NCBI RefSeq assembly: GCF_003334765.1
Contig: NZ_QOWT01000013.1
DNA: 64,000 nt
Reading direction: 5' to 3' (one strand)
Origin: Escherichia coli
GTDB taxonomy: Bacteria; Pseudomonadota; Gammaproteobacteria; Enterobacterales; Enterobacteriaceae
Made by a program: the position numbers and the translations under genes. Every line of letters starts with the position of its first letter. The first letter of the stretch is position 1. Below, piece by piece: positions 27,238-54,922 of this stretch. The notes beneath the pieces were generated by a model, which did no database searches, was not told where the DNA came from, and was given only the letters and a program-made list of their open reading frames with translations.

Positions 27238-28326
27238 TTAACCGTGACGGCGTTCGAACTCAACCATGAAGTCTGTCAGCGCTTTAACGCCTTCCAGCGG
27301 CATGGCGTTATAAATAGAAGCGCGCATTCCGCCGACCACACGGTGACCTTTCAGTGCATGAAGGCCAGCAGCAAAAGACTCTTCAAGGAACAATTTGTCA
27401 AGCGCACTGTCCGCCAACTGGAACGGCACGTTCATCCGCGAACGGTTAGCTTTCGCCACGTCATTGCGGTAGAAATCGCTGTTATCAATCACCCCATATA
27501 GCAGTTCTGCTTTTTGCTGATTGATTTTATCCATTTCAGCTACACCGCCGTTCGCTTTCAGCCATTTAAAGACCAGACCAGATAGATACCAGGCAAATGT
27601 CGGCGGCGTGTTAAACATGGAGCCGTTATCGTTGAGGATGGAATAATCCAGAATCGACGGACACGCGATATTCGCTTTGCCCAGCAAATCTTCACGAACG
27701 ATGACGATTGTCAGGCCAGCCGGGCCGATATTTTTCTGCGCGCCAGCGTAAATTACACCATAACGGCTGACGTCAATCGGACGGGAAAGAATGGTTGAAG
27801 AGAAGTCAGCGGCGACCACCACATCTGCGCCGAAGTCTGGCGTTTCGTCGATGGCGATACCATCGATGGTTTCATTCGGGCAATAATGCATATAAGCAGC
27901 ATTATCAGAGAGTTGCCATTCACGCATTGGCTTAACCGCGCGCAGACCATCAACAGTCACTTTGGCGTCAAAGACATTAGGCGTGCAGTATTTTTTCGCT
28001 TCTTTAATGGCACTTGCCGCCCAGTAACCGGCATCAACATAATCTGCGGTGGTTTTATCACCGAGAATATTCAGCGGTACCGCAGCAAACTGACCGCGAC
28101 CACCGCCATGGCAGAATAATACCTTGTAGTTGGAGGGGACATTAAGAAGATCGCGAAAATCCTTCTCGGCTTCCTCTGCAACCTGAATGAACTCTTTGCC
28201 ACGGTGACTCACTTCCATCACCGACGTACCAAGACCGTTCCAGTCGCGCAGTTCCTGTTGAGCCTGTTTAAGCACCTCTGCCGGTAGCATTGCCGGACCA
28301 GAACTAAAATTGAAGATTTGAGCCAT
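27238..28326 (-). CDS. serC: phosphoserine aminotransferase
   Basis: 362-aa [18 protein letters not shown]; serC-aroA operon arrangement. Confidence 0.97.
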
Positions 28327-28524
28327 TTCCCCTCACCACGTTGCGTTGCTATTAACCCGCGGTCAATCGATTGCGACCACAGGTAATACATTATTCCTGT
28401 GGCTATCGGTTTTATCATTCAGTGACACACATCGCAATGAGTAAAACCGTTGAGGGCAAAAATGTGGCTTGCATCACACAAAAGAATCTCTCGGATTATT
28501 AGCAAAAAGCCGATGTTTTTACTG

Positions 28525-29217
28525 TCAGGTCACCCGTTTTGCCCGACTTGCCTTCGTCCATTCTGGATTTGCACAGCGCGGACATAATTGTTTTTCCCCC
28601 GCTTTCATATGAATGATTTCACTACAACGAATACAGGCATAGTCCGCCGACTCCGGCACCACTTTGTAACGCTGCGTACAATCACTGGGTAAAATAAGTA
28701 AACCCGGTTTCACCTTGTCATCTTCAAAGAAATAGACACTGATTTGCCCGTTGGTTTCGAGAATCGCCAGACGTACCTGCCCCAGCTGCTCCACGCCACG
28801 CAATCGTAGCTCCATAAAGAACTCAAATTCCGTCATGTTGGAGTTATTGAGTTTCGACCAGGCCAGCTCGCCATCTTCAATAATGACAACTGGCTTGCCT
28901 TCCAGAAGATCTTCCAGTTTTTCACTGTGCGCCATCAACCACATTACCAGGCGGTATAACAACGCCAGAGTAATAAAGACGATAAGTACCGGGACCATCG
29001 GCACATCATCATAAAACGCCACATCTCCCGCCGCTGATCCCAGCGTCAGAATGATTAAAACTTCAAACAGCGACATCTGCCGCACACCGCGTCTTCCGGT
29101 CATTTTGAGGAACAAAAAGACCAGTACAAAGGTATAAAGACTACGTAGTGCAACTTCGCCAAGGAAATCAAAAGGCACTTTATCAAATGCCATACGGTGG
29201 AGATCGAACGCCTTCAT
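28525..29217 (-). CDS. ycaP: DUF421-family membrane protein YcaP
   Basis: 230-aa ORF with TM segments; synteny. Confidence 0.8.
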   Translation of the reverse strand: MKAFDLHRMAFDKVPFDFLGEVALRSLYTFVLVFLFLKMTGRRGVRQMSLFEVLIILTLGSAAGDVAFYDDVPMVPVLIVFITLALLYRLVMWLMAHSEKLEDLLEGKPVVIIEDGELAWSKLNNSNMTEFEFFMELRLRGVEQLGQVRLAILETNGQISVYFFEDDKVKPGLLILPSDCTQRYKVVPESADYACIRCSEIIHMKAGEKQLCPRCANPEWTKASRAKRVT

Positions 29218-29346
29218 TTTTATGCTCTTAACGTGGTTTATCCGCTAAAAGCATAGTCAACAGTTCATCGGCATGGCGGCGGTGATAGCGCCTTTGAGAT
29301 AAAACCCGTATTATTGCGCGCTTTCCGTACGACTAAAGTGATTTTC

Positions 29347-31107
29347 ATGACGCAAACATTTATCCCCGGCAAAGATGCCGCTCTGGAAGATTCCATCGCT
29401 CGCTTCCAGCAAAAACTTTCAGACCTCGGCTTTCAGATTGAAGAGGCCTCCTGGCTGAATCCCGTGCCTAACGTCTGGTCTGTACATATTCGCGACAAAG
29501 AGTGCGCACTGTGTTTTACCAACGGTAAAGGCGCAACCAAGAAAGCGGCGCTGGCTTCTGCACTCGGTGAATATTTCGAGCGTCTCTCAACCAACTACTT
29601 TTTTGCGGACTTCTGGCTGGGCGAAACCATCGCCAACGGTCCGTTCGTGCATTATCCCAACGAAAAATGGTTCCCACTGACCGAAAATGACGATGTGCCA
29701 GAAGGGCTGCTCGATGACCGTCTGCGCGCGTTTTATGATCCGGAGAATGAACTGACCGGCAGCATGCTGATTGACCTACAATCCGGTAACGAAGATCGTG
29801 GTATTTGCGGCCTGCCGTTTACGCGTCAGTCCGACAATCAGACCGTTTATATTCCGATGAATATCATTGGTAACCTGTACGTCTCCAACGGTATGTCCGC
29901 AGGTAATACCCGCAACGAAGCACGCGTTCAGGGATTGTCTGAAGTTTTCGAACGCTACGTGAAAAACCGCATTATTGCTGAAAGCATCAGCCTGCCAGAG
30001 ATCCCGGCAGACGTGCTGGCGCGTTACCCAGCAGTAGTTGAAGCCATCGAAACGCTGGAAGCGGAGGGTTTCCCAATCTTCGCTTATGACGGTTCGCTTG
30101 GCGGCCAGTATCCGGTGATTTGCGTGGTACTGTTCAATCCTGCTAACGGTACCTGCTTTGCCTCTTTCGGTGCGCATCCTGATTTTGGCGTAGCACTGGA
30201 ACGTACCGTGACCGAGCTGCTGCAAGGTCGTGGCCTGAAAGATTTGGATGTGTTTACTCCGCCAACCTTCGATGATGAAGAAGTCGCTGAACATACCAAC
30301 CTCGAAACGCACTTTATCGATTCCAGCGGTTTAATCTCCTGGGACCTGTTCAAGCAGGATGCCGATTATCCGTTTGTGGACTGGAATTTCTCCGGCACCA
30401 CGGAAGAAGAGTTCGCCACACTGATGGCTATCTTCAACAAAGAAGATAAAGAAGTTTATATTGCCGATTACGAGCATCTGGGCGTTTATGCTTGCCGTAT
30501 TATCGTGCCTGGCATGTCCGATATTTATCCGGCTGAAGATCTGTGGCTCGCGAATAACAGTATGGGCAGCCATTTACGTGAAACGATTCTTTCGCTACCA
30601 GGCAGCGAGTGGGAAAAAGAAGATTACCTGAACCTCATCGAGCAACTGGATGAAGAAGGTTTTGATGACTTTACCCGCGTGCGTGAGCTGTTGGGTCTGG
30701 CGACCGGGTCGGATAACGGTTGGTACACCCTGCGTATCGGTGAATTAAAAGCCATGCTGGCGCTGGCTGGTGGCGATCTGGAACAGGCTCTGGTCTGGAC
30801 CGAATGGACGATGGAGTTTAACTCATCAGTATTTAGTCCGGAACGCGCCAACTATTATCGCTGCCTGCAAACGTTGTTATTACTGGCACAGGAAGAAGAT
30901 CGCCAGCCGCTGCAATATCTGAATGCGTTTGTTCGCATGTACGGCGCAGATGCCGTAGAAGCCGCCAGTGCGGCAATGAGCGGCGAAGCGGCGTTTTACG
31001 GCCTGCAACCGGTAGATAGCGATCTGCACGCGTTTGCTGCACATCAGTCGTTGTTGAAGGCCTACGAAAAGCTGCAGCGCGCCAAAGCAGCATTCTGGGC
31101 AAAATAA
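29347..31107 (+). CDS. ycaO: YcaO-domain protein (ribosomal protein S12 methylthiotransferase accessory factor)
   Basis: ORF 29314..31107; start at MTQTFIPGKD (586 aa). Confidence 0.9.
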   Translation: MTQTFIPGKDAALEDSIARFQQKLSDLGFQIEEASWLNPVPNVWSVHIRDKECALCFTNGKGATKKAALASALGEYFERLSTNYFFADFWLGETIANGPFVHYPNEKWFPLTENDDVPEGLLDDRLRAFYDPENELTGSMLIDLQSGNEDRGICGLPFTRQSDNQTVYIPMNIIGNLYVSNGMSAGNTRNEARVQGLSEVFERYVKNRIIAESISLPEIPADVLARYPAVVEAIETLEAEGFPIFAYDGSLGGQYPVICVVLFNPANGTCFASFGAHPDFGVALERTVTELLQGRGLKDLDVFTPPTFDDEEVAEHTNLETHFIDSSGLISWDLFKQDADYPFVDWNFSGTTEEEFATLMAIFNKEDKEVYIADYEHLGVYACRIIVPGMSDIYPAEDLWLANNSMGSHLRETILSLPGSEWEKEDYLNLIEQLDEEGFDDFTRVRELLGLATGSDNGWYTLRIGELKAMLALAGGDLEQALVWTEWTMEFNSSVFSPERANYYRCLQTLLLLAQEEDRQPLQYLNAFVRMYGADAVEAASAAMSGEAAFYGLQPVDSDLHAFAAHQSLLKAYEKLQRAKAAFWAK

Positions 31108-31438
31108 AATCAAATAGCCTACGCAATGTAGGCTTAATGATTAGTCTGAGTTATATTACGGGGCGTTTTTTTAATGCCCCGCTTTACATATATTTGCATT
31201 AATAAAATAATTGTAATTATAAGGTTAAATATCGGTAATTTGTATTTAATAAATACGATCGATATTGTTACTTTATTCGCCTGATGCTCCCTTTTAATTA
31301 ACTGTTTTAGCGGAGGATGCGGAAAAAATTCAACTCATTTGTTAATTTTTAAAATTTATTTTTATTTGGATAATCAAATATTTACTCCGTATTTGCATAA
31401 AAACCATGCGAGTTACGGGCCTATAAGCCAGGCGAGAT

Positions 31439-31452
31439 ATGATCTATATCAA
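31439..31452. promoter_or_regulatory. FNR-like inverted repeat in focA-pflB upstream region
   Basis: atgatctatatcaa resembles TTGAT-N4-ATCAA (one mismatch); TATAAT-like hexamer at 31462..31467. Confidence 0.4.
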
Positions 31453-31512
31453 TTTCTCATCTATAATGCTTTGTTAGTATCTCGTCGCCGACTTAATAAA
31501 GAGAGAGTTAGT

Positions 31513-32370
31513 GTGAAAGCTGACAACCCTTTTGATCTTTTACTTCCTGCTGCAATGGCCAAAGTGGCCGAAGAGGCGGGTGTCTATAAAGCAACGAAAC
31601 ATCCGCTTAAGACTTTCTATCTGGCGATTACCGCCGGTGTTTTCATCTCAATCGCATTCGTCTTCTATATCACAGCAACCACTGGCACAGGCACAATGCC
31701 CTTCGGCATGGCAAAACTGGTTGGCGGCATTTGCTTCTCTCTGGGGCTGATTCTTTGTGTTGTCTGCGGAGCCGATCTCTTTACTTCCACCGTGTTGATT
31801 GTTGTTGCTAAGGCGAGTGGGCGCATCACCTGGGGTCAGTTGGCGAAAAACTGGCTAAATGTCTATTTTGGCAACCTGGTCGGCGCACTGCTGTTTGTAC
31901 TTTTAATGTGGCTTTCCGGCGAGTATATGACCGCAAATGGTCAATGGGGACTAAACGTCCTACAAACCGCCGACCACAAAGTGCACCATACTTTTATTGA
32001 GGCCGTCTGTCTTGGTATCCTGGCAAACCTGATGGTATGTCTGGCAGTATGGATGAGTTATTCTGGCCGCAGCCTGATGGACAAAGCGTTCATTATGGTG
32101 CTGCCGGTCGCGATGTTTGTTGCCAGCGGTTTTGAGCACAGTATCGCAAACATGTTTATGATCCCGATGGGTATTGTAATCCGCGACTTCGCATCCCCGG
32201 AATTTTGGACCGCAGTCGGTTCTGCACCGGAAAATTTTTCTCACCTGACCGTGATGAATTTCATCACTGATAACCTGATTCCGGTTACGATCGGCAACAT
32301 TATCGGTGGTGGTTTGTTGGTTGGGTTGACATACTGGGTCATTTACCTGCGTGAAAACGACCACCATTAA
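31513..32370 (+). CDS. focA: formate channel FocA
   Basis: Within ORF 31339..32370; start taken at in-frame GTG (VKADNPFDLLL) giving 285 aa as in K-12 FocA. Confidence 0.9.
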   Translation: MKADNPFDLLLPAAMAKVAEEAGVYKATKHPLKTFYLAITAGVFISIAFVFYITATTGTGTMPFGMAKLVGGICFSLGLILCVVCGADLFTSTVLIVVAKASGRITWGQLAKNWLNVYFGNLVGALLFVLLMWLSGEYMTANGQWGLNVLQTADHKVHHTFIEAVCLGILANLMVCLAVWMSYSGRSLMDKAFIMVLPVAMFVASGFEHSIANMFMIPMGIVIRDFASPEFWTAVGSAPENFSHLTVMNFITDNLIPVTIGNIIGGGLLVGLTYWVIYLRENDHH

Positions 32371-32424
32371 TGGTTGTCGAAGTACGCAGTAAATAAAAAA
32401 TCCACTTAAGAAGGTAGGTGTTAC

Positions 32425-34707
<2,283 letters not shown>

Positions 34708-34748
34708 TTAGATTTGACTGAAATCGTACAGTAAAAAGCGTACAATAA

Positions 34749-34776
34749 AGGCTCCACGAAAGTGGGGCCTTTTTTA
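34749..34776 (+). terminator. Rho-independent terminator after pflB
   Basis: Hairpin aggctccac-gaaa-gtggggcct followed by ttttt. Confidence 0.75.
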
Positions 34777-34898
34777 GCGCGAGAGCCTTTTTTGTCAGCT
34801 ATCTATACTTTAAGGTGACTGCCAAAACAGACTCGACGTAGCCTTCGAGCTGCGCACCAACACGGCCTCAGATGGGCCACATCTGGAGAAACACCGCA

Positions 34899-35639
34899 AT
34901 GTCAGTTATTGGTCGCATTCACTCCTTTGAATCCTGTGGAACCGTAGACGGCCCAGGTATTCGCTTTATCACCTTTTTCCAGGGCTGCCTGATGCGCTGC
35001 CTGTATTGTCATAACCGCGACACCTGGGACACGCATGGCGGTAAAGAAGTTACCGTTGAAGATTTGATGAAGGAAGTGGTGACCTATCGCCACTTTATGA
35101 ACGCTTCCGGCGGCGGCGTTACCGCATCCGGCGGTGAAGCAATCCTGCAAGCTGAGTTTGTTCGTGACTGGTTCCGCGCCTGCAAAAAAGAAGGCATTCA
35201 TACCTGTCTGGACACCAACGGTTTTGTTCGTCGTTACGATCCGGTGATTGATGAACTGCTGGAAGTAACCGACCTGGTAATGCTCGATCTCAAACAGATG
35301 AACGACGAGATCCACCAAAATCTGGTTGGAGTTTCCAACCACCGCACGCTGGAGTTCGCTAAATATCTGGCGAACAAAAATGTGAAGGTGTGGATCCGCT
35401 ACGTTGTTGTCCCAGGCTGGTCTGACGATGACGATTCAGCGCATCGCCTCGGTGAATTTACCCGTGATATGGGCAACGTTGAGAAAATCGAGCTTCTCCC
35501 CTACCACGAGCTGGGCAAACACAAATGGGTGGCAATGGGTGAAGAGTACAAACTCGACGGTGTTAAACCACCGAAGAAAGAGACCATGGAACGCGTGAAA
35601 GGCATTCTTGAGCAGTACGGTCATAAGGTAATGTTCTAA
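34899..35639 (+). CDS. pflA: pyruvate formate-lyase activating enzyme (radical SAM)
   Basis: ORF 34872..35639; start at [14 protein letters not shown] (246 aa); CxxxCxxC motif [10 protein letters not shown]. Confidence 0.95.
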
Positions 35640-35650
35640 TTTCCCCGTAA

Positions 35651-35682
35651 AGCGGCAACTTTATTGAGTTGCCGCTTTTTTA
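35651..35682 (+). terminator. Rho-independent terminator after pflA
   Basis: Hairpin agcggcaact-ttattg-agttgccgct followed by tttttt. Confidence 0.75.
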
Positions 35683-35720
35683 TTCCGCGCTTCATTCTGC
35701 TACAGCGTTTTTAACACATC

Positions 35721-36311
35721 TTATAGTGCATCTACCATATCCCGTACCTGAGATAATAACGACTGATAATAGCTCGCGTGAAGTTCTTCCCCATCGAATA
35801 CCACTGTATTACACAAGAAAGTGACATCGGCATCTTCAATACCAAGATAACTGCACATATTTTTTAAATAATCGCTTATATTTTTTTCCCAGCCCATCTG
35901 GACAAATGATTCTTTGTCTCCTCCAACCAGCGCCACCCAACGAACTTTATTGAATGGTAATTTGTGCCCATCTCCATAAGCCAGCCCATTATTCCATACT
36001 CTGTCAATATATCCTTTTAGCATTGCCGGGAAGCTGTACCACCAGAGAGGAAAAACCACCACTAACGTGTCATGTTCAAGCAGCTCTGAATAAAGCTGAT
36101 GAACCTCTGGAGAATAACGTTTATCCATATTCTTCCAGTCTGGTTCATCTTCCGGCGTCATCACTGGGTTGAAATTACGCCGATATAAATCGAGTTCCGT
36201 CACCTGTATTTTCCGCTCCATTGCCCGCTGATGGATCGCATCAGCAATATGTGCGGTCAATGAATCATGACGAGGATGGGCCCATACCAAATAAATACGT
36301 TCAGACTGCAT
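35721..36311 (-). CDS. ycaK: NAD(P)H dehydrogenase (quinone)-like flavodoxin-fold protein YcaK
   Basis: 196-aa ORF; synteny. Confidence 0.85.
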   Translation of the reverse strand: MQSERIYLVWAHPRHDSLTAHIADAIHQRAMERKIQVTELDLYRRNFNPVMTPEDEPDWKNMDKRYSPEVHQLYSELLEHDTLVVVFPLWWYSFPAMLKGYIDRVWNNGLAYGDGHKLPFNKVRWVALVGGDKESFVQMGWEKNISDYLKNMCSYLGIEDADVTFLCNTVVFDGEELHASYYQSLLSQVRDMVDAL

Positions 36312-36410
36312 AATTTTACCTCCACGTTAAGTTCTGGAGCGCACTTTACGCAGGCGGCATAATCCTGTAAACGTGATGATTCAGGATGAGTTAATGAAGG
36401 ATTTTCACTA

Positions 36411-37319
36411 ATGCGGATGAATATGTCTGACTTTGCCACTTTCTTTGCCGTGGCCCGTAATCAAAGCTTTCGTGCAGCGGGCGATGAGTTAGGCTTATCC
36501 TCGTCCGCCATTAGCCATAGTATTAAAACACTGGAACAACGTCTTAAAATTCGCTTATTCAATCGGACAACCCGAAGCGTATCGTTAACGGAAGCGGGTT
36601 CTAATCTCTATGAACGATTGCGCCCAGCTTTCGACGAAATTCAGATCATGTTAGATGAGATGAATGATTTTCGTCTGACACCGACAGGAACGCTCAAAAT
36701 CAATGCCGCCCGGGTAGCTGCACGTATATTTTTAATGTCTTTACTGGTTGGTTTCACACGTGAATATCCTGATATTAAAGTCGAGCTCACAACTGACGAC
36801 TCTCTTGTCGATATCGTCCAACAGGGCTTTGACGCTGGCGTTCGACTTAGTTGCATCGTCGAAAAAGATATGATCAGCGTGGCGATCGGCCCGCCAGTGA
36901 AATTATGTGTAGCAGCAACGCCAGAGTACTTTGCAAGATATGGCAAACCCCGCCATCCTCATGATCTGCTTAATCATCAATGTGTTGTTTTTCGTTATCC
37001 CAGCGGCAAACCTTTCCACTGGCAATTTGCAAAGGAGCTGGAAATTGCTGTCGCAGGAAATATCATTCTGGATGATGTTGATGCTGAACTGGAGGCCGTT
37101 TTGATGGGTGCTGGTATCGGGTATCTGCTCTATGAACAGATCAAGGAGTACCTTGATACTGGTCGTTTAGAATGTGTACTGGAAGACTGGAGCACAGAGC
37201 GTCCAGGCTTCCAGATCTATTATCCAAACCGCCAGTATATGTCCTGCGGCTTGCGCGCATTTCTCGATTATGTAAAAACGGGTCAGATCTGCCAGAGTCA
37301 GCGTCACCGACCACAATAA
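36411..37319 (+). CDS. ycaN: LysR-family transcriptional regulator YcaN
   Basis: 302-aa ORF with N-terminal HTH and LysR substrate-binding domain. Confidence 0.88.
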   Translation: MRMNMSDFATFFAVARNQSFRAAGDELGLSSSAISHSIKTLEQRLKIRLFNRTTRSVSLTEAGSNLYERLRPAFDEIQIMLDEMNDFRLTPTGTLKINAARVAARIFLMSLLVGFTREYPDIKVELTTDDSLVDIVQQGFDAGVRLSCIVEKDMISVAIGPPVKLCVAATPEYFARYGKPRHPHDLLNHQCVVFRYPSGKPFHWQFAKELEIAVAGNIILDDVDAELEAVLMGAGIGYLLYEQIKEYLDTGRLECVLEDWSTERPGFQIYYPNRQYMSCGLRAFLDYVKTGQICQSQRHRPQ

Positions 37320-53811: not shown

Positions 53812-54894
<1,083 letters not shown>

Positions 54895-54922
54895 TTTTAC
54901 AAATCAGTAACAAAAGTAAAGA

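Follow-up and report, generated by a model that had tools for sequence, protein, structure and literature searches.

An FNR site and its conserved surroundings in the AT-rich ycaO-focA spacer of Escherichia coli

Background

What does the long AT-rich spacer upstream of the GTG-initiated focA gene of Escherichia coli contain, and which of its elements can be assigned to regulators that respond to oxygen? The spacer lies in a stretch of DNA of 64,000 nucleotides, here called the window, to which all positions refer unless stated otherwise. The pfl region has been a textbook case of combinatorial anaerobic control, with FNR, ArcA, IHF and multiple promoters, since about 1989; it turns on the genes for the formate channel and for pyruvate formate-lyase once oxygen is exhausted. 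Metabolic engineers also use the P6 promoter with its FNR box to drive expression under anaerobic conditions. In the literature from Sawers, P6 is said to be FNR-dependent and to be overlapped by a promoter, P6A, that starts about 13 bp upstream, and P7 is said to depend on ArcA. Induction by pyruvate reportedly requires IHF, bound between P6 and P7, and NarL and NarP reportedly repress.

We hereby analyzed the spacer by alignment with K-12, motif scanning, comparison with related loci and transfer of published ChIP and transcription start data, and we discuss its elements from the ycaO end towards focA.

Results and Discussion

The spacer is the pfl regulatory region of K-12

The spacer extends over 405 bp from the ycaO stop to the focA start (31108..31512). 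The open reading frames of the window place the TAA stop codon of ycaO at 31105-31107 and the GTG start codon of focA at 31513-31515, where the frame opens GTG AAA GCT GAC AAC; YcaO (597 aa as listed) is encoded upstream of the spacer, and focA is followed by pflB (32425-34707) and then by pflA. The G+C content of the spacer is 0.309 (30.9%) versus 0.512 (51.2%) for the window, and that of its core (31183-31400) is 23.4%. The lowest-GC stretch of 405 bp in the 64-kb window starts at 31100, and 0.04% of all 405-bp windows are as AT-rich.

Window positions 27979-36979 have 0 mismatches in 9001 against the reverse complement of E. coli K-12 MG1655 (NC_000913.3, 949000-958000). The annotation of that segment reads ycaN-ycaK-pflA-pflB-focA-ycaO-ycaP-serC, and the gene order ycaO-focA-pflB-pflA matches the window. 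Because of this identity the region is literally the pfl regulatory region of K-12, and published positions could be converted directly (MG1655 = 985979 - window, U00096.2 coordinates being 777 lower). Positions 31108-31512 are thus almost certainly the known oxygen- and redox-responsive focA-pflB (pfl) regulatory region of E. coli K-12.

A first-pass annotation, made from the letters of the window alone, had described a 405-bp AT-rich region ahead of a GTG-initiated focA, and its coordinates are exact; the alignment with the K-12 pfl promoter region that it proposed as a check returned 405 identical bases of 405. Its reading of the spacer as a multi-promoter region under FNR, ArcA and IHF agrees with the K-12 identity, with the motifs described below and with published ChIP peaks and transcription start data. 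As a discovery the locus has small value, the region being already known and the locus ordinary; it is, however, a positive control for the scan, in which a reader without tools recovered an experimentally documented regulatory site at its exact coordinates, and the comparison with relatives supplies, in addition, a clean phylogenetic footprint for the entire region. The system described by Sawers and co-workers and recorded in RegulonDB/EcoCyc has the same locus, flanking genes, FNR site, ArcA ChIP site, IHF core between them and GTG-initiated focA. We see no difference from it; the assignment of promoter 7 and the conserved blocks without a factor are the additions made here.

A 621-bp query across the spacer (window 31000-31620) was found in all 5426 of the 5426 complete E. 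coli genomes searched, and its matches are 95-100% identical in all matching records but one. In strain hubt-sl, H15 the match covers the ycaO end only, which suggests a deletion of focA-pflB. The same search returned five places on plasmids and one record with at least 40 matching pieces; these records, like hubt-sl, may represent engineered strains, or constructs that contain the pfl promoter. No Rfam family matched window 30000-33000 at E <= 1.

For the comparison with relatives, FocA was searched in one genome per species, which gave 80 loci with FocA 89-100% identical, all from Enterobacteriaceae by title except two that appear mislabelled. The 620 bp upstream of focA were aligned for 76 of the 80 loci together with the window (77 sequences). 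On the contig named 'Chryseobacterium sp. 18061' the focA locus is enterobacterial, with a FocA that shares 91% identity with that of E. coli, and the terminator region is very similar to the one on 'Citrobacter sp. 18056', a contig of the same project; the assembly is probably mislabelled or contaminated.

The upstream end: a probable ycaO terminator and the candidates for promoter 7

Two hairpins are predicted on the + strand at the ycaO end of the spacer. The first, in the ycaO 3' region, is the palindrome AGCCTAC-GCAAT-GTAGGCT (31116..31134; -10.2 kcal/mol, z = -3.8), whose right arm (GTAGGC) is conserved and whose left arm is not in a 16-genus alignment. The second has a 9-bp stem and a 5-nt loop (31159..31181; -15.7 kcal/mol, z = -4.1). 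Its inner stem changes with compensation in relatives (GGGGCAAT/ATTGCCCC, GGGGCCAA/TTGGCCCC, GGAGCG/CGCTCC, GGGGTC/GACCCC), and in most of them a run of six to eight T follows the stem, so that 31159-31181 is probably the intrinsic terminator of ycaO. The T run is degenerate in E. coli (CTTTACAT), where the U-run is only CUUUACAU, and a consensus terminator scan made no call at this strong, co-varying hairpin.

The sigma70-like candidate promoter TAGGCT-17-TATATT (31129..31157, + strand) has a predicted start at about 31164, which lies within the hairpin. It is the third-ranked promoter-like site of the spacer and the sole conserved upstream one, with a conservation of 0.74 and 0.95 for the two hexamers. 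The segment TATATTAC (31152-59), immediately 5' of the terminator stem, is nearly invariant in 64 distinct sequences; exactly 17 bp upstream stands TAGGCT, TAGGTT or TAGGCG, and the intervening sequence is variable while its length is constant. Klebsiella michiganensis has TATGAT, still a -10-like sequence, in place of the TATATT hexamer. Moreover, a sigma70 ChIP-seq peak at U00096.2 954032, that is window 31170, rises from 329 under aerobic to 1955 under anaerobic conditions (Myers 2013, Table S2, PMC3688515). This peak falls within a few bases of the predicted start, the peak at P6 lying about 20 bp downstream of the start of that promoter.

Promoter 7 might instead be TTTACA-17-AATAAT, an E. 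coli-specific sigma70 site on the + strand (31183..31211) with a start at about 31218. This start is 1.2 kb upstream of the pflB ATG, which we take to be the distance given when promoter 7 was originally described. The site is near-consensus and, with 10 of 12 positions, the best upstream match to the -35 and -10 hexamers, and in-vitro SELEX with RNAP holoenzyme named this sequence in the focA/ycaO spacer as the 'constitutive promoter' of focA (Shimada 2014, PMC3946193). Its hexamers are, on the other hand, poorly conserved (0.56 and 0.46), and the sigma70 peak at 31170 would lie about 48 bp upstream of its start, whereas the P6 peak lies downstream. On this evidence TAGGCT-17-TATATT is the rather likely candidate for the anaerobically induced upstream promoter, and we take it as the published promoter 7; for TTTACA-17-AATAAT that role is possible and somewhat doubtful. 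A second sigma70 promoter, induced anaerobically, stands at the far upstream end of the spacer; it is probably TAGGCT-17-TATATT, whose start near 31164 would fall in the 5' arm of the terminator stem.

In E. coli KFu015 (NZ_CP147130.1) an IS1A that adds 777 bp, with a 9-bp target duplication TGCCCCGCT, is found at window 31175-31183; it sits in the right arm of the ycaO terminator and parts the TATATT element from the ArcA, IHF and FNR modules.

The ArcA direct-repeat array

Downstream of the terminator a direct-repeat array for phosphorylated ArcA extends over 31200..31271 on the + strand. A single-repeat scan of this strand found TTGTAAT (31211), AGGTTAA (31222) and TTGTTAC (31265), and CGGTAAT (31233) continues the 11-bp phase of the first two. 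With an ArcA-box weight matrix made from the 114 boxes of Park 2013 (Table S3, PMC3798270), the focA box being left out, 31211-31228 scores 17.0 bits, the second best in the window, and 31222-31239 scores 10.3 bits. The score of 17.0 bits is reached by 29 of 2000 AT-matched first-order Markov sequences of spacer composition (about 1.5%); since the ArcA motif is itself AT-rich, the matrix taken alone is moderately significant, and the claim rests on ChIP-seq and conservation. In fact, the ArcA ChIP-seq peak 'focA2' has a predicted site of four repeats, TAATAAAATAATTGTAATTATAAGGTTAAATATCGGTAATTTGTATTTAATAAA, which corresponds to window 31200-31253 (Park 2013), and the 11-bp spacing between TGTAAT and GGTTAA is kept in 73 of the 77 sequences. 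The spacer thus holds at least two TGTTAA-like repeats at 11 bp centre to centre.

Phosphorylated ArcA occupies this array, some 200-280 bp upstream. The array shares with other multi-repeat ArcA sites (Park 2013; cydA, sdhC) at least three TGTTAA-like repeats, the 11-bp spacing, the extended site and the occupancy in vivo; most such sites repress by overlapping a promoter, whereas the one at focA acts positively. Relative to the proposed upstream start the repeats lie at +39 to +107, downstream of it, where activators do not usually bind, and Park 2013 describes the way in which ArcA activates focA-pflB as unknown.

Elsewhere in the window the matrix has its strongest hits at 54896-54913 (TTGTTACTGATTTGTAAA, 20.4 bits), identical in sequence to the ArcA box that Table S3 of Park 2013 gives for cydD, and at 53834-53851 (TTGTTAACAATTTGTGCA, 15.8 bits). 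NarL heptamers (TACYYMT) were looked for by eye in the alignment; the matches are imperfect (e.g. TACTCCG at 31383) and none was assigned.

The IHF site, the conserved blocks and their spacing

The predicted IHF site (31347..31384, + strand) is composed of an A/T tract, TTTTAAAATTTATTTTTAT (31347-65), and a core, AATCAAATATTTA (31372-84). This core is the sole match of the spacer to the IHF consensus WATCAANNNNTTR and stands directly 3' of the 19-bp A/T tract, so that the combination of core and upstream A/T tract expected of an IHF site is present at the level of sequence. The consensus occurs seven times in the window versus 2.7 expected, so the core by itself is weak and conservation is needed as evidence. 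Across the 77 sequences ATCAA and TTA of the core are conserved and its four N positions vary, which is the textbook pattern. The distance to the FNR site is 67 bp for the core in 75 sequences of 77 and 90 bp for the A/T tract in all 77. Table S6 of Myers 2013 lists no overlap of the FNR site itself with IHF ChIP-chip.

Three further blocks, to which no strand is assigned, are 88-93% conserved across the 77 sequences and keep fixed distances from the FNR site: TCCnTTTTAATTAAC (31288..31302, mean conservation 0.88), AAAAAATTCAAC (31323..31334, 0.93), whose 111-bp distance from that site is kept in 73 of 77, and CCTATAAGCCAGGCGAGAT (31420..31438, 0.93), which is richer in G+C and immediately 5' of the FNR site. 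The latter sits where the alpha-CTD of RNA polymerase would be at a class II promoter. All 111 bp upstream of the FNR site are without indels in 73-77 of the 77 sequences, and that such AT-rich non-coding DNA should have almost no indels across many genera for more than 110 bp indicates a stereospecific protein-DNA assembly.

The IHF site, placed between the ArcA array and the FNR site, likely has the role of bending or looping the DNA between modules: bending would join the upstream ArcA and RNA polymerase module and the P6 module as one nucleoprotein complex. Promoters at which IHF assists a distant activator (narG, nifH-type looping) resemble focA in that an IHF site, at a conserved distance, separates an upstream activator module from the core promoter; they differ in that the core promoter of focA depends on sigma70 and FNR and that the upstream module may itself be a promoter.

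A more elaborate arrangement, which we consider unlikely, would combine a promoter nested in the ycaO terminator with an unassigned factor at the three conserved blocks. RNA polymerase coming from ycaO would terminate, and polymerase starting at about 31164, inside the stem, would be unable to form the hairpin and would read into focA; the strictly positioned blocks TTAATTAAC, AAAAAATTCAAC and CCTATAAGCCAGGCGAGAT would bind the factor, for example a mediator of pyruvate induction. If true, and if not already contained in promoter 7 and the ArcA and NarL sites of the old literature, this would add one detail, new though modest, to a classic system.

The FNR site

The FNR binding site ATGAT-CTAT-ATCAA lies at 31439..31452 (centre 31445.5, no strand), where the window reads ATGATCTATATCAA, a match at 9 of 10 positions to TTGAT-N4-ATCAA. 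The pattern TGAT-N4-ATCA occurs once in 64 kb, at this position. Table S6 of Myers 2013 provided the 62 further ChIP-positive sites for an FNR weight matrix, from which the focA site was left out. On this matrix ATGATCTATATCAA scores 16.8 bits, the top score of the 64-kb window, where the runner-up has 11.2; when the spacer was shuffled 3000 times with its dinucleotides preserved, this value was reached once. In the same table the sequence TTGATATAGATCAT at U00096.2 953750, with a PatSer score of 14.37, lies under the FNR ChIP-seq peak for focA. Myers 2013 also places focA-pflB in Category 1, 'directly activated' by FNR, and focA expression falls to 0.15 in its fnr mutant data set.

The comparison of relatives agrees with these data. 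The half-sites are ATGAT and ATCAA in 75 of the 77 sequences (ATGAT and GTCAA in the other two) around a 4-bp spacer with six variants (CTAT, CTAC, CCAT, CGAT, CCAC, CTGA), and the site begins 74-76 bp before the GTG in all 77. ATGATCTATATCAA is therefore a real FNR site, far beyond chance. The first-pass annotation had pointed to one near-consensus FNR palindrome at 31439..31452: its coordinates are exact and it is the sole recognisable FNR site of the spacer. The motif scans on which that annotation had made its reading depend return significant sites for both regulators, the FNR match being the top and the ArcA match the second best of the window.

No second FNR-like site is found in the spacer, where the best other score is 3.4 bits. 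The segment that gives it, CTGAGTTATATTAC (31146-59), was rejected as a second FNR site: its left half is not conserved and it overlaps the conserved TATATT. Direct FNR control of the upstream promoter thus has no sequence support here.

The inverted repeats of FNR and CRP are related and some sites are common to both, so that the 14-mer could belong to the CRP family and be used by CRP rather than FNR; this is very improbable given the half-site TGAT with a 4-bp spacing, which is of the FNR type and not TGTGA-N6-TCACA, the binding of FNR in ChIP-seq and the fall of focA expression in the fnr mutant data set. Least probable of all is that the palindrome is a chance match and the AT-richness that of a non-functional or horizontally acquired, H-NS-silenced segment: AT-rich DNA does give many weak matches to AT-rich motifs, ArcA-box scores being 10 +/- 2.7 bits in random sequence of spacer composition and the IHF core exceeding its expected number in the window by a factor of only about 2.6, but this reading is effectively refuted by the rarity of the FNR score among shuffles, by half-sites that are nearly invariant in many genera and keep their distance to the start codon, by the published ChIP occupancy of FNR, ArcA and sigma70 in vivo, by a spacer that is syntenic and alignable across Enterobacteriaceae, and by an FNR peak that is unaltered in an hns/stpA mutant (Myers 2013).

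The proximal promoters P6 and P6A

Two -10 elements follow the FNR site on the + strand. TATAAT (31462..31467) matches the consensus and belongs to the top-ranked promoter-like site of the spacer, an FNR-independent promoter which we take to be P6A; TAGTAT (31475..31480) is assigned to P6, the FNR-dependent class II promoter. The segment TCTATAATGCTTTGTTAGTATCTC, which contains both, is invariant across the 77 sequences. A focA transcription start at U00096.2 953726, with a 5' UTR of 37 nt, corresponds to window 31476 (Kim 2012, PMC3415461); these data show a start downstream of TATAAT under aerobic conditions. For P6, the geometry of the -10 element gives a start at 31486/31487, which puts the FNR centre at -40.5/-41.5, and Table 1 of Myers 2013 lists the top FNR site for focA-pflB at -40.5 from the start, which implies a second start near 31486. 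A sigma70 peak at U00096.2 953695 (window 31507) rises from 285 under aerobic to 2026 under anaerobic conditions (Myers 2013, Table S2), so that both focA peaks, at 31507 and 31170, are 6-7 times higher anaerobically. There is thus more than one transcription start upstream of focA, as the start at 31476, the FNR distance of -40.5 and the two sigma70 peaks, all published data, show.

The supplements of the Cappable-seq and SMRT-Cappable-seq papers have no focA entries. Dar and Sorek 2018, in the passage that cites Sawers 2006, describe the 5' ends inside focA as largely processing products.

These positions suggest how the proximal promoters work. FNR bound at -41.5 of a class II promoter contacts RNA polymerase and replaces the -35 element. 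In anaerobiosis, dimeric [4Fe-4S]-FNR binds ATGATCTATATCAA at the centre 31445.5, where it overlaps the -35 position, and in the manner of a class II activator recruits sigma70 RNA polymerase to the weak -10 element TAGTAT, with a start at about 31486/7 (P6). The FNR site also covers the -35 position of the overlapping TATAAT promoter, whose start at 31476 provides FNR-independent basal expression; since the site lies at -28 to -30 from that start, FNR competes with the -35 contacts of this promoter.

Other class II FNR promoters (narG, dmsA, yfiD/grcA, nirB) have in common with focA a site of the TTGAT-N4-ATCAA type with its centre about 41 bp upstream of the start, a -35 element that is weak or missing, and an anaerobic rise of sigma70 occupancy. 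Unlike them, focA has an FNR site that also occupies the -35 position of an overlapping promoter with a consensus TATAAT, and this site is embedded in a conserved upstream architecture of roughly 300 bp with ArcA and IHF.

The translation start of focA

The translation-initiation region (31497..31536, + strand) is composed of the purine-rich Shine-Dalgarno sequence AAAGAGAGA, the GTG at 31513 and the first eight codons of focA. The start codon is GTG in 76 of the 76 related loci examined, and the whole region is invariant, third codon positions included: third-position conservation is 1.0 for focA codons 1-6 versus 0.53 on average at the 3' end of ycaO. A MAPS study found that focA mRNA is pulled down with the small RNA RprA (PMC5861431), and together with the invariance of the start region this makes a constraint at the RNA level plausible.

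Small upstream ORFs, among them those with ATG at 31137, 31317 and 31406, were considered as leader peptides and rejected, their start codons not being conserved in relatives. An extension of the focA frame to a TTG at 31339 (31339-32370, 343 aa) was also rejected: it runs across the promoters and the FNR site and lacks the conservation of a coding sequence, and is an artefact of the ORF listing that arises because no in-frame stop intervenes. A small hairpin predicted at 31507-31524 puts the GUG of focA in its loop.
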